A DNA stretch of 64,000 bases from an uncultured Candidatus Saccharibacteria bacterium. Lineage in GTDB: Bacteria; Patescibacteriota; Minisyncoccia; Phycocordibacterales; PALSA-1337. A program made the position numbers and the translations under genes. The notes under the pieces are model-generated. The model was not told the origin of the DNA. It made no database searches and saw only the letters and a program-made list of their open reading frames with translations. Numbering within the stretch: the stretch's first letter is position 1; the number at the start of each line of letters is the position of its first letter. Below, piece by piece: positions 4,835 through 36,089 of this stretch. Location of the stretch: contig CAZBVQ010000001.1 in the NCBI GenBank assembly GCA_964495685.1, forward strand, positions 373,568 to 437,567, given 5' to 3'.

Positions 4835-4909
4835 TGGTGCCCTCGGTAGGAATCGAACCTACATCTATTCCTTAGGACGGAACTGTTCTATCCATTGAAC
4901 TACGAGGGC
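4835..4909 (-). tRNA. tRNA-Arg (anticodon CCU)
   Basis: Manual cloverleaf on the minus strand: acceptor GCCCTCG/CGAGGGC, D-arm GTTC-AATGGATA-GAAC, anticodon loop GTCCTAA (anticodon CCT), T-arm GTAGG-TTCGATT-CCTAC, CCA encoded. Confidence 0.8.
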
Positions 4910-5280: not shown

Positions 5281-5353
5281 GCCGAGGTAGCTCAGTTGGT
5301 AGAGCATTCCCCTGAAGAGGGAAGGGTCACCAGTTCGATCCTGGTCCTCGGCA
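5281..5353 (+). tRNA. tRNA-Phe (anticodon GAA)
   Basis: Manual cloverleaf: acceptor GCCGAGG/CCTCGGC, D-arm GCTC-AGTTGGTA-GAGC, anticodon stem TTCCC/GGGAA with loop CTGAAGA (anticodon GAA), T-arm ACCAG-TTCGATC-CTGGT, discriminator A. No encoded CCA. A long imperfect hairpin follows at 5355-5400. Confidence 0.85.
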
Positions 5354-5486
5354 CTACTTCGCAACCCCGCCCAAAAGGCGGGGTTGCTTCGTAGTGCGGG
5401 CACGGTAAGGTTCTAGGTCATATTTCATCCACAGGAGGCCTTGTCGAATAAGGCGATTTTGTTATGCTTACCGCTGGGTTCAGTAT

Positions 5487-30124: not shown

Positions 30125-32041
30125 TTATATCTTGAGCATATCGAGGAGCATGGCTACTTTGAGGGTTGCCACTCCTACGACCAAGTCAGCACCTCCATAA
30201 TATATATAGACAGTTCCATTTCTGATCACCATACCACAAGGGAATACGACATTGGAGACAATACCGCTCAATTCGTATGGTGCCTCTGGTTCAAAGAAGG
30301 GTATTGCAGTACGGGCAAGCACAATAGTCGGATCGGTAAGATCGAGAAGTACAGCGCCTACGCGATATACAGAGCTCCATGAGACGCCATGGTAGAGCAT
30401 GAGCCAGCCGTGGGCAGTCCGTACGGGCGGAGTAGAAATGCCTACCTTCATGCCGTCCCACATACCTCGACGTGGTGACATTATCTCGATACAACGGGTG
30501 ACTTTTTCTTTTGAAAAATCCAAAGAATTGACGAAATCGGCGCAGATGCTTTCGTGGACACGATGGAGGACCATGTATTTGCCATCGATAGCTTCGGGGA
30601 CGATGGCGGCATCTTTGTTGTCTATGTTCATCGGCGTAATAATCTCAGGCTTGGTCCACGCACTCCATGTGCGCTTCAAGAAATCGTCGGTGCCGATAGA
30701 GGTGACCGCCACTCGCGGTAATCCACCGTCGTATGCTGTATAGGTCATGTATACACGAGTACCAATTAGCATGATACGAGGATCCTCGCAGCCACGTGAC
30801 TCGAAGCTGATGCGGGGGCTGTATATAGGTTTGTCTGAACGTTCGTCTATGGTAAATCCGTCACTCGTAGTGGCATACCCAATAGTTGATATGTTGTCGG
30901 CAGAAACGGCGCGATAGAGGATGTGTGTCTTGTTGCCCAGATCTATGGCGGCAGGATTGAGTGTACCTCGAGCTTCCCAGAGAACCCCTGGACGTGGAGC
31001 AATGATAGGATTGCCGGCAAATCGCTTCAAGGCAGTTTTGCCTGATGATGGTGCGAGCGACTCGAGGAGTGGCTCCATTGGAATAGTTGCTACTGAACAA
31101 TGGGAATCGGCTGCGCCATAATAAATCTCCAAATGCTCGCCTCGAATCAGTGCACCTGAAGGGAAGATGGTATGGGGAACTTGCCCCACGTGTTCGTAGA
31201 AGAAATCGGGGACCATGAAAGGACCTTTGGTGCTACCGATGACGTTGAGTGGATTTTTCTCATCGAGTAGGAGCAGCTCTATGCCGAATACATGATCAGG
31301 TTTGTCGTAACGTTGGATGTGAGAATACACGATCAGCCACCCTTTGTCTGTTTTGACCGGGACAGCACCAAGCTCAACATGGTCATCGCCGCGTCGGCGA
31401 ATGTTCAGTTTGTGCGCGTCGAGATTCTTGTACCATTCGTTCCAATAATCTGCGGACCAGATATCCTCGGGTGTATTGAATTCGATGTAACAAATATCGG
31501 AAGGTTTGCGGTCAGTGTTCACGGTGACCAGCGCAGCCAACTTGCCGTTTATTTTCTCAGGGAAAAGAGCCATAGCTTTGGCGTTGAACGGTGTCACCAA
31601 GTGCTTCTCGGTGATAGTTTTGAGATCAGTACTCAGGGCTACACAGACCTTGATATTATTGGCAGAAAAGGGGAAGCCGCCGAGGCCGGTATAGAAAATA
31701 TAGTAGGTTTTGCCGATCTTGGTGACACGCGGATCTTCACAGCCATAGCGATCGAAGTCTGCATCAGGTGAAATGAGTACGGAACGGTTCTCATAATCTA
31801 TGCCATCCTTGGAATCGGCTCGGGCAATCACGGACATACGGATATGGGGCTCCTTGAGAAGGTCTGGCTCGGACATGGCACGATATACCAGAGTCGTCCT
31901 GCGCCCCTGAATAATGGGGGATCCATTGAATGCAGCAGCCGCTTCCCATGGATGTTCGCGGAACGGGGAGAGGATAGGGTTATGTGGAGAACGGGTGACA
32001 GTGAACATGGTGTTGATTATATCATGCAGGAATCTGCTCAC
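30125..32041 (-). CDS. Tandem two-domain GH130-family glycoside phosphorylase (beta-mannoside phosphorylase-like)
   Basis: Two repeats of the GH130 signature (YGCEDPRVTKIGKTYYIFYTG; RGCEDPRIMLIGTRVYMTYTAYDG) within 638 aa. Confidence 0.7.
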   Translation of the reverse strand: MSRFLHDIINTMFTVTRSPHNPILSPFREHPWEAAAAFNGSPIIQGRRTTLVYRAMSEPDLLKEPHIRMSVIARADSKDGIDYENRSVLISPDADFDRYGCEDPRVTKIGKTYYIFYTGLGGFPFSANNIKVCVALSTDLKTITEKHLVTPFNAKAMALFPEKINGKLAALVTVNTDRKPSDICYIEFNTPEDIWSADYWNEWYKNLDAHKLNIRRRGDDHVELGAVPVKTDKGWLIVYSHIQRYDKPDHVFGIELLLLDEKNPLNVIGSTKGPFMVPDFFYEHVGQVPHTIFPSGALIRGEHLEIYYGAADSHCSVATIPMEPLLESLAPSSGKTALKRFAGNPIIAPRPGVLWEARGTLNPAAIDLGNKTHILYRAVSADNISTIGYATTSDGFTIDERSDKPIYSPRISFESRGCEDPRIMLIGTRVYMTYTAYDGGLPRVAVTSIGTDDFLKRTWSAWTKPEIITPMNIDNKDAAIVPEAIDGKYMVLHRVHESICADFVNSLDFSKEKVTRCIEIMSPRRGMWDGMKVGISTPPVRTAHGWLMLYHGVSWSSVYRVGAVLLDLTDPTIVLARTAIPFFEPEAPYELSGIVSNVVFPCGMVIRNGTVYIYYGGADLVVGVATLKVAMLLDMLKI

Positions 32042-33170
32042 GTATGTTGCCGTAGGTGGTCATCCACGTGAGAAGGTCGTTGAGTGGCGTTTCGGCAATG
32101 CAGGTATGTCTGTCGCCTCCGCCATAGTAGATGACGAGTCGTCCGTCGCGTATCAGGGCGCCTGAGGCATAGACTATGCCTGGTTTGCCATCATTCTCGT
32201 AACACATATCAGGAGAGAGGATCGGTTCTGGTGAACGATACAGAATCACGCTCGGGTCATTCGTGTCGAGAATCATAGCGCCGAGTTTGTATTTGCTCCA
32301 GTCCTTCTTGTCTATGGCGTGATAGAGCAGAAGCCAACCGATAGGTGTCTTGATCGGTGGAGGTCCAGCTCCACGTAGGGTGTTGTCCCAGAATTGATCA
32401 CGCCCGGGCTGAGGCCCTTGTGGACGTTCGCTTTGTATGTGACCGTCAAAGTGCTCAATATCATCAACATAATCGATCAAGATACGCGGAGCGATGCCGT
32501 GTAAGATAGCATATTTACCTTTTATTTTTTCTGGGAAAAGAACCCAGTTTTTGTGGACCTGACCAGGTGGTGAAATGAGGCGAGGTTTTTTCCAATTCCA
32601 GCGCTCCTTCTTCAAATCCTTGAGTGCAATCGAGGTAAGGGCGATGCGCACGGAACTCCAACCCTGGAAAGCGGTATAGGTCATATAAACACGGTCACCA
32701 ATTTTCACGGCACGTGGATCCTCATGCCCACCCCATCCACCGCCAGATGTGTAGATGGCAGGATTGTATGTCTTGAGTCGGTCTGATGCGGATAGGACTT
32801 TCTCTTCCGTGTGCGGTCGATATACAGGGAATGATGAACGTCGGTCAAAATTCTTGCCATCTTTGCTTGATGCGTGACCAATAGTAGAAAGTCCATCACT
32901 GCCGATGGCGCGATAGAGGAGATGGACGCGACCTTCGTCGTCTTGCACTGCTGCTGGATTGAAGGTACCGTTGGCTTCCCATTCCTGATGAGGACGAGGG
33001 GACATGACTGGATTTGCTCCATGTCTCTCTACACGGTGGCTCCTAGATTTCTTTTTGCCACTACGTTGTGTATGTTCCGAAATGAGATGCCATACAATAC
33101 CGATTGCAATGGCGAGTGCCAGAGCAAAAAGTCCTATGACGAGTGTTGAATAATCTGCTGTAACGTTCAT
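32022..33170 (-). CDS. Membrane-anchored GH130-family glycoside phosphorylase
   Basis: N-terminal TM helix, then the GH130 signature GHEDPRAVKIGDRVYMTYTAFQG. Overlaps the downstream GH130 gene, consistent with an operon. Confidence 0.7.
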   Translation of the reverse strand: MNVTADYSTLVIGLFALALAIAIGIVWHLISEHTQRSGKKKSRSHRVERHGANPVMSPRPHQEWEANGTFNPAAVQDDEGRVHLLYRAIGSDGLSTIGHASSKDGKNFDRRSSFPVYRPHTEEKVLSASDRLKTYNPAIYTSGGGWGGHEDPRAVKIGDRVYMTYTAFQGWSSVRIALTSIALKDLKKERWNWKKPRLISPPGQVHKNWVLFPEKIKGKYAILHGIAPRILIDYVDDIEHFDGHIQSERPQGPQPGRDQFWDNTLRGAGPPPIKTPIGWLLLYHAIDKKDWSKYKLGAMILDTNDPSVILYRSPEPILSPDMCYENDGKPGIVYASGALIRDGRLVIYYGGGDRHTCIAETPLNDLLTWMTTYGNIREQIPA

Positions 33171-33200
33171 CGAAATGCCTCACACATGTGGGGCTATATA

Positions 33201-33554
33201 TTATGCGATTCTGCCGTACTTATCTTCAAGTCGTGTTATATCTTTTTCATCAAACTCTCCGAATGATATTTCAAGCACGACCACGCTTGAAACGCCGGCT
33301 TGTATCCGGTGTACGGTATTATGTGGAATAAAATGATTTTGGCCTGCTTGTATAGGGAATGAGTCTGTTCCGATCGTAATAGTTCCTTCGCCAGATATCA
33401 CACGCCAAAATTCGTCACGTTTGTTGTGGGTTTGAAGACTAAATGCCTCACCAGACTTCACGGTTATAATCTTGACGGTCGAGAGAGTGTTCTTGGTAAA
33501 CTCAACAAACTCCCCCCAAGGTCGCTCTTCACGATATGGTTTAGGGGCTTGCAT
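33201..33554 (-). CDS. Cupin-2 domain protein (mannose-6-phosphate isomerase type II C-terminal-like)
   Basis: Cupin motifs G-x5-H-x-H-x3-E (SLQTHNKRDEFW) and G-x5-P-x-G-x2-H (HFIPHNTVHR). First gene of the GH130/HAD minus-strand cluster. Confidence 0.55.
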   Translation of the reverse strand: MQAPKPYREERPWGEFVEFTKNTLSTVKIITVKSGEAFSLQTHNKRDEFWRVISGEGTITIGTDSFPIQAGQNHFIPHNTVHRIQAGVSSVVVLEISFGEFDEKDITRLEDKYGRIA

Positions 33555-35422: not shown

Positions 35423-35455
35423 TTTTTTGTCTCGGCTCCGCGGCCAGGGATCGAA
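35423..35455 (-). repeat. Partial duplicate of the tRNA-Asn 3' end (acceptor 3' strand plus half T-arm plus flanking T-run)
   Basis: TTTTTGTCTCGGCTCCGCGGCCAGGGATCGAA at 35423-35455 against TTTTTGTCTTGGCTCCGCGGCCAGGGATCGAA at 35610-35642 (32/33 identical). Each copy is preceded by a different terminator hairpin. Confidence 0.6.
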
Positions 35456-35619
35456 GCTTACAGCTTCAGTACAGGCTTCGTGTCTCGCTTCGTCCTACAC
35501 TTCGTTTCGGACTCGCTGCGACATACTCAGCCTTTTCGATCCCTGGCTCGCAAAGCGTGCAGACGCTTTGCTCGCGTCGCCTCAACAAAAAATACTTCCC
35601 GAAAGAAGTATTTTTGTCT

Positions 35620-35984
35620 TGGCTCCGCGGCCAGGGATCGAACCTGGGACATCCTCGTTACGTTTGGTCTCCTATTACTAGGGGTACGGACTATATCATC
35701 TCCAATGAAACTCGTGTCAAAGCTTCATTACGGAGTAAGGCGCTTCCCAGAGCATATTGCTCCAGTACTCCCACAAGGGGATAGTCTCTGAACCTTTCCC
35801 TCACATGGATTCTTGCTATGTCATCGGTGTACATAACAAAGATTCATGTGAGGGACTTGGCTGCTGATTGCCCACATTTGCATGTTGGGGTTTCCGGCAA
35901 TTCACCTTATTTTTCAGCCTAAGTTTCCTTAGGAAGCTGCTATTCTCTAACAGCGAGGCGCTCTACCGGCTGAGCTACCGCGGA
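35620..35984 (-). tRNA. tRNA-Asn (anticodon GUU) interrupted by a 289-nt group I intron
   Basis: 5' exon at plus 35950-35984 gives TCCGCGG-TA-GCTC-AGCCGGTA-GAGC-G-CCTCG-CTGT. 3' exon at plus 35620-35660 gives TAA-CGAGG-ATGTC-CCAGG-TTCGATC-CCTGG-CCGCGGA-G-CCA. Spliced cloverleaf is canonical with anticodon loop CUGUUAA. Intron (plus 35661-35949) follows U35 and ends in G. P1 is GCTGT/GCAGC with U-G, P2 is CCTAAG-GAAA-CTTAGG. Core elements P AATTGCCGGAAA, Q AATCAGCAGC, R GTTCAGAGACTA and S GATATAGTCC are all present. Confidence 0.8.
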
Positions 35985-36089
35985 ATATGTTGTGTAAGAA
36001 CGTACGTAATTCCATGAAGAATTACGTCACAAAATGTATCATATCTCGCGCCGTAAATCAAAACCGAAGTGACAAATCTGTAGTATAGT

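Follow-up and report, generated by a model that had tools for sequence, protein, structure and literature searches.

The range of intron types known from bacterial tRNA genes was expanded from the four classical ones (Leu.3Ug, Arg.5Ug, fMet.2Ug and Ile2.5Ug) to 21 by Williams in 2020 (bioRxiv 10.1101/2020.01.27.920355). Its 'Asn.4Ug' class, as cited in PMC13011429, denotes insertion into tRNA-Asn at 35/36, the '4' signifying a position after residue 35 of the loop. Nakagawa et al. (mSystems 2026; PMC13011429) described group I introns at 35/36 in 15 tRNA-Asn(GUU) and 3 tRNA-Asp(GUC) genes, based on 95 complete Patescibacteria genomes. Across 4,934 complete genomes, 28 introns were placed at this site, of which 19 belonged to Patescibacteria and 25 to subgroup IA; the site was enriched in Patescibacteria, and nearly all Patescibacteria tRNA introns were assigned to IA rather than IC (PMC13011429). 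Most of the 35/36 introns were without endonuclease genes, four Patescibacteria Asn introns carried HNH genes (PF01844), and endonuclease-bearing IA introns at 35/36 were seen in Patescibacteria only, within a survey of complete genomes only (PMC13011429). Precise self-splicing in vitro was demonstrated for the Asn intron of a Saccharimonadia genome, GCA_016700035.1, where the RT-PCR product was sequenced and an omega-G-to-C mutant served as the negative control (PMC13011429). Table S5 of that study also places Asn 35/36 introns in Nitrospirota and Bipolaricaulota, and labels a Nitrospirota member of the family IA1 (PMC13011429).

The window (the whole 64-kb stretch of DNA that was analysed) carries a new, fairly divergent member of this described and experimentally validated family, rather than a new insertion site or isoacceptor. 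The earlier note had held an Asn intron at 35/36 to be undescribed; this was wrong, since such introns entered the 2020 catalogue and one of them was seen to self-splice in vitro in the work of 2026. The window copy and its genome were absent from the accessible part of the published supplementary tables, which cover complete genomes only (PMC13011429).

The interrupted tRNA-Asn gene

When the two exons were joined, ARAGORN returned a canonical 76-nt tRNA-Asn(gtt), in agreement with the exon limits that the earlier note had proposed (Table 1). In the spliced molecule all four stems (acceptor, 7 bp; D; anticodon; T) are perfect, position 73 is G and the CCA end is encoded. Since the first base of the intron and the first base of the 3' exon are both U, the boundary cannot be read from the mature sequence by itself. 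Insertion was placed between anticodon positions 35 and 36, again as had been proposed, because this is the sole boundary that provides both a U(-1) in the U.G pair of P1 and a terminal G. The same features were assessed in a MAFFT alignment of 48 sequences (A1), comprising the window, three published Patescibacteria Asn introns (among them GCA_016700035.1, validated in vitro) and 44 non-redundant genome loci. The U.G pair at the P1 splice site was present in all 48 sequences, as was the CTGT that closes the 5' exon. The 3' junction, G|TAA (G|UAA in RNA), was invariant across the alignment, including the column of the terminal G at 35661, with which the intron had been said to end; the first base of the intron varied among relatives, while U36 of the 3' exon did not.

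ARAGORN in its default mode detected no tRNA at the locus, and in intron mode it reported tRNA-Thr (ggt) i(35,289). Taken literally, this output describes a tRNA-Thr(GGU) gene with an intron one base further 5', at 34/35. Such a gene is extremely improbable: its 5' exon would end in G and its intron in C, so that the U.G wobble and the omega-G would both be lost, despite the conservation of U.G and G|UAA throughout the alignment. The tRNA body, moreover, has U1-A72 and G73, a combination typical of bacterial tRNA-Asn. The assignment to tRNA-Asn(GUU) was therefore retained. Comparable mis-calls, in which shifted boundaries turn Asn 35/36 genes into Thr(UGU) with insertion at 33/34, are a known artefact of ARAGORN and tFind (PMC13011429).

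That the interrupting sequence is a group I intron was upheld by comparison with the Rfam covariance model RF00028, which matched 35668-35959 (-) with 81.3 bits (E = 4.1e-19; gathering score 50) and across all model positions (1-253/253). The alternative, that this match is a chance resemblance and that no intron is present, was given no credence in view of an E value of 4e-19 over the full model, more than 100 homologous loci with the same tRNA and the same site, and compensatory covariation in the alignment. We hold with high confidence that the window contains a group I intron in tRNA-Asn(GUU) at 35/36.

All helices from P1 to P9 are able to form in this intron, together with an insert of the P7.1/P7.2 type (Table 1). 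Every element picked out in the earlier note was found in the place given there: the P1 helix (GCUGU/GCAGC with U-G), P2 with its GAAA cap, and the strings for P, Q, R and S. Compared with the Rfam model, the P7.1/P7.2 region shows up as an insertion of 37 nt that follows the R element. In the whole helix scheme the sole non-canonical pair was C35896.A35865 in P4, by which the Q element departs from perfect complementarity to P. A P10 of 2 bp (3'-exon UA with guide UA) would be possible, UA being the first dinucleotide of the intron as well as of the 3' exon.

Table 1. Coordinates of the tRNA-Asn exons, the intron with its helices, and the downstream element, in window positions
Feature	Position	Strand	Description
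tRNA-Asn 5' exon	35984-35950	-	tRNA positions 1-35, ends C32 U33 G34 U35; reads UCCGCGGUAGCUCAGCCGGUAGAGCGCCUCGCUGU
Group I intron	35949-35661	-	289 nt, without an ORF; begins with U (35949) and ends with omega-G (35661)
P1	35954-35948 / 35942-35936	-	7 bp: exon GCUGU + intron UA (GCUGUUA) with UAGCAGC; loop GAGAA, 5 nt
P1 splice-site wobble	U35 (35950). G (35940)	-	at 5' splice site
P2	35933-35918	-	6-bp hairpin, GAAA tetraloop
P3	35909-35903 / 35742-35736	-	5' strand / 3' strand
P4-P5 domain	35899-35862	-	
P4	35899-35894 / 35867-35862	-	one C(35896).A(35865) mismatch
P5	35889-35871	-	hairpin, GCAA loop, bulged A
P6 / P6a	35861-35792	-	long P6a hairpin: 11 perfect base pairs + apical extension; inverted repeat
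P7	35788-35782 / 35693-35688	-	guanosine-binding helix; 5' strand in R element GUUCAGAGACUA, 3' strand in S element; bulged A beside putative G-binding G-C pair
P7.1	35781-35769	-	extra hairpin between P7 and P3 3' strand
P7.2	35765-35747	-	extra hairpin between P7 and P3 3' strand
P8 / P8a	35735-35700	-	hairpin
P9	35684-35669	-	hairpin, GUAA tetraloop
Tail after P9		-	ACCAAACG; ends in omega-G, 35661
tRNA-Asn 3' exon	35660-35620	-	positions 36-76: U36 A37 A38 ... G73 CCA; reads UAACGAGGAUGUCCCAGGUUCGAUCCCUGGCCGCGGAGCCA
Terminator-like element	35618-35583	-	A/U-rich hairpin then U run directly after CCA; RNAfold -12.1 kcal/mol

No other tRNA-Asn was found by ARAGORN or by Rfam search within the 64-kb window, which is part of a metagenomic contig of 521,699 bp, and the interrupted gene is presumably the only tRNA-Asn gene of the cell. 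Because standard finders miss this gene or mis-name it as Thr, the genome would appear to lack tRNA-Asn and completeness estimates would suffer. The practical value of the result lies in annotation, a point already made in published work. The sole tRNAs that standard tools found in the window were tRNA-Arg(CCU) at 4835-4909 (-) and tRNA-Phe(GAA) at 5281-5354 (+), both of which are uninterrupted.

Relatives, covariation and endonuclease reading frames

Species-representative genomes were scanned with the pattern GCAGC N5-10 GGAAAC N5-10 GAAA N5 GGTGAAT, which produced at least 119 loci having the motif GCAGC-N-GGAAAC-N-GAAA-N5-GGUGAAU in common with the window. Loci were resolved by a rule set consisting of U(-1), omega-G, a complementary anticodon stem, a T loop and acceptor pairing. 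Among the 119 loci listed, which do not include the window's own genome, 66 resolved, together with the window as control, as tRNA-Asn GTT with insertion at 35/36 and introns of 227-384 nt. Approximately 37 further listed loci resolved as tRNA-Asn 35/36, nearly all with a 300-nt insertion in the P1 loop, and most of the remainder were cut by contig or chunk ends. The intron family spans many phyla, with at least 100 species genomes carrying it. Hosts among the matches listed included Nitrospirota, Elusimicrobiota, Planctomycetota, Aminicenantes/Acidobacteriota, Syntrophales and other 'Deltaproteobacteria' (Desulfobacterota-like lineages), as well as Margulisbacteria, Omnitrophota, Aerophobetes, Bipolaricaulota and many Patescibacteria. 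The nearest relatives of the window intron that lack an endonuclease gene, among the matches listed, were 60-65% identical and all from Patescibacteria. A phage origin of the locus was also considered and rejected; the search of a phage collection gave only a 14% partial match, to an intron-like region of a Bacillus phage.

The helices were well maintained across alignment A1. The proportion of cells that were paired was 95% for P1, 98.3% for P2, 99.7% for P3, 99.0% for P4, 100% for P6 and 99.7% for P7, and compensatory changes were found in P2, P3, P4, P6a and P8. In P2 they affected all six pairs; three pairs covaried in P3; the six outer pairs of P6a were well paired and every one of them showed compensatory changes; and the outer five pairs of P8 were 85-100% paired, with four of the five covarying. 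Five of the six P7 pairs were invariant. The covariation score was 0.295, compared with 0.109 +/- 0.004 after shuffling (0/500 reached 0.295), and it fell to 0.05-0.11 when pairing partners were slid by 1-3 columns. Paired percentages were low for the P5 apex, P7.1/P7.2, the P8a apex and the P9 register because MAFFT leaves variable hairpins unaligned; each of these hairpins forms in the window sequence itself.

The region between P7 and the 3' strand of P3 (A1 columns 224-280; window 35747-35781) displayed two different layouts within the intron family. The first, UAUCCC-loop-GGGAGUA-hairpin-GGAAGCGCC, was seen in the window, in several Patescibacteria including the published Paceibacteria GCA_026016225.1, and also in three Elusimicrobia loci (L106, L011 and L044). 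The second, UAGAGGCUGAGGA..CCAAUAA..GCCUC, occurred in Saccharimonadia as well as in Nitrospirota and many others. Neither layout follows phylum boundaries, which hints that the intron has been transferred horizontally.

Approximately one third of the family members listed had an ORF of about 100 codons that lies within the P1 loop and stops immediately ahead of the GCAGC guide (L001, L007, L012, L013, L020, L023, L024, L028, L031, L033, L034, L037, L042, L047, L048, L053, L054, L060, L067, L073, L074, L076, L077, L080, L083, L093, L096, L099, L110, L113, L117 and L119). These loci came from Nitrospirota, Elusimicrobiota, Planctomycetota, 'Deltaproteobacteria' and Aerophobetes, besides Patescibacteria. 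The protein of about 100 aa encoded by the insertion ends in ...C(A/S)NCH(R/M)E(V/I)H, and the reading frame displays an HNH-like motif, CxxC...HH...CxxCHxxxH. A Pfam search with the relatives' ORFs gave PF01844 for one (E = 0.003, below threshold) and no match for another. On the basis of this motif and of the published PF01844 assignment, the product may be regarded as a putative HNH-like endonuclease.

The HNH-bearing tRNA-Asn 35/36 introns share ribozyme family and site with the window intron; they contain the ORF within the P1 loop and reach 530-620 nt. In the window, by contrast, the P1 loop is 5 nt long. The intron contains no ORF, and the earlier note was correct that, at 289 nt, it is too short for a homing endonuclease. 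No gene was called within the intron interval in the annotation of the source contig, and the antisense ORFs that overlap the intron start outside it and had no Pfam match. Since its P1 loop is without an ORF, the window copy would be unable to home by itself.

The P4 mismatch and predicted splicing

The position occupied by C.A in the P4 helix of the window was G-C in 41 relatives, U-A in three and A-U in two. The mismatch is not an assembly error, because three assemblies made independently from different samples agree at 100% over the 601-bp locus. It does raise the question of whether the intron is decaying into a relic that is defective in splicing; the gene would then be a tRNA pseudogene, and a separate, intact tRNA-Asn would work elsewhere in the genome. 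A mismatch in a core helix would fit with this, as would the absence of the homing endonuclease ORF that many relatives have, and a duplicated stretch of 35 nt from the tRNA 3' end, situated 187 nt downstream, which shows past rearrangement. Nevertheless, we consider decay unlikely. The other core pairs are all intact, and every position that does not vary in the family has been kept (U.G, omega-G, P7, J3/4 and the R and S elements); the exons fold into a flawless tRNA; and the identity of the three assemblies likewise speaks against a relic. The mismatch itself is a single transition away from the U-A that the nearest relatives (L078, L064 and L057) carry at this position, and a bulged C is tolerated at the same spot in L025.

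A functional intron is thus preferred to a relic. The standard group I pathway has two steps and is initiated by guanosine. Applied to the window, transcription of the minus strand would produce a 365-nt pre-tRNA, in which the intron would fold into P1-P9, with P1 formed between the anticodon-loop GCUGU plus the first two intron bases and the internal guide UAGCAGC. Free guanosine bound at P7 would attack after U35, whose wobble pairing with G marks the 5' splice site. The terminal G (35661) would then take over the guanosine site and the 5' exon would attack the 3' splice site, the alignment being aided by the 2-bp P10 (exon UA / guide UA) and by the re-forming anticodon stem. Ligation of ...CUGU to UAACGAGG... 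would generate GUU as the anticodon, in a normal tRNA of 76 nt that includes its encoded CCA. Given that core features are intact and that a homologue was validated in vitro, the window copy is expected to self-splice.

One may further speculate that an intron without an endonuclease is no neutral passenger but has been kept in a reduced genome because it acts, at the RNA level, as a checkpoint on how much of the only tRNA-Asn is supplied, its splicing rate being set by guanosine nucleotide and Mg2+ levels and perhaps by the A.C in P4; we rate this as improbable. An idea of this kind, the intron as regulator, was raised by Nakagawa et al. as speculation only (PMC13011429).

Gene neighbourhood and comparison with described introns

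The window shared the gene order tRNA-Asn / PF1765-like / hpf / fmt / def / (priA) with other Patescibacteria loci, namely from Parcubacteria (L048), Kaiserbacteria (L057), Patescibacteria (L080) and Saccharibacteria (L025), at protein identities of 27-49%. This conservation suggests vertical inheritance, and the intron has probably been inherited in this manner at the tRNA-Asn locus. Gene order, together with protein identities of 38-47% to Patescibacteria loci, indicates that the host is a Patescibacterium. Synteny with the related Patescibacteria loci was confined to the 5' side (PF1765-like/hpf/fmt/def/priA). On the 3' side, which was not syntenic, two adjacent GH130 genes (beta-1,4-mannooligosaccharide phosphorylase family) and a mannose-6-phosphate isomerase-type cupin occupied 30125-33554 (-). 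A His_Phos gene was called at 176 aa; the start codon of the 208-aa ORF is too far upstream.

Close to the gene, the terminator-like element (Table 1) is plausibly the terminator of the pre-tRNA transcript; a consensus terminator scan missed it because its stem has too few G-C pairs. A consensus scan upstream of tRNA-Asn found no convincing promoter of the sigma-70 type. At 35993-36016 (-), 9-32 nt before the tRNA begins, lies a perfect 9-bp inverted repeat, ACGTAATTC-N6-GAATTACGT (-12.2 kcal/mol as an RNA hairpin). Candidate roles for it are those of a leader hairpin and an operator-like site. The downstream duplicate at 35424-35458 (-) is a direct repeat of 35611-35645 (33/35 identical), reaching from the T loop through the acceptor end and 10 nt into the downstream flank, and has a G+C-rich terminator hairpin of its own (35422-35397). 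An inverted 13-nt copy of TTCGATCCCTGGC lies between the two repeat copies, at 35535-35547. Similar repeats of the tRNA 3' end were observed 155-1359 nt downstream in three other loci (L103, L066 and L036). The 35-nt repeat resembles either a local duplication or the att-type scar that an integrative element would leave at a tRNA 3' end.

The classical IC3 introns are found in tRNA-Leu(UAA) at 34/35 (cyanobacteria, plastids), tRNA-fMet at 33/34, tRNA-Arg(CCU) at 36/37 (Agrobacterium) and tRNA-Ile(CAU) (Azoarcus). Like these, the window intron is small and ORF-less, uses anticodon-loop sequence to form P1 and would follow the same two-step, guanosine-initiated chemistry. However, it differs in its tRNA and site, and in having about 35 nt (35747-35781), folded into two hairpins, between P7 and the 3' strand of P3, an insert absent from IC3 introns. 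A classical IC3 tRNA intron was ruled out by the tRNA, the insertion site and the 37-nt insertion after the R element with respect to the Rfam consensus. An extra domain of the P7.1/P7.2 type is typical of subgroup IA, and the window intron may be assigned to IA from this insert and from homology to published introns labelled IA.

The closest resemblance is to the published 'Asn.4Ug' (Asn 35/36) family, to which the window intron very probably belongs, and to whose very widespread distribution it adds one divergent Patescibacterial example without opening a new question. The window intron differed from the published family in its longer P6a hairpin, the C.A mismatch in P4 and the lack of an endonuclease ORF, and it was less than 56.5% identical to the validated intron of GCA_016700035.1. 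In other respects it is like the Patescibacteria Asn 35/36 introns, with the same tRNA, anticodon and site, the same P1 guide (GCAGC/GCUGU with U.G), a GAAA-type P2, GAAA in J2/3, GGUG in P3, the R and S elements, and a terminal G followed by UAA. The window and the published Asn introns have in common the string GCAGC-UU-P2(GAAA)-..GAAA..-GGUGAAUU as well as the remaining core. The window gene, as with the published Asn 35/36 genes, evades standard tRNA finders or is called Thr. Its intron aligned over the full length, helix for helix, with three published Patescibacteria introns, including GCA_016700035.1 and GCA_026016225.1, and its extra domain between P7 and the 3' strand of P3 has the same layout as in the latter, from Paceibacteria.
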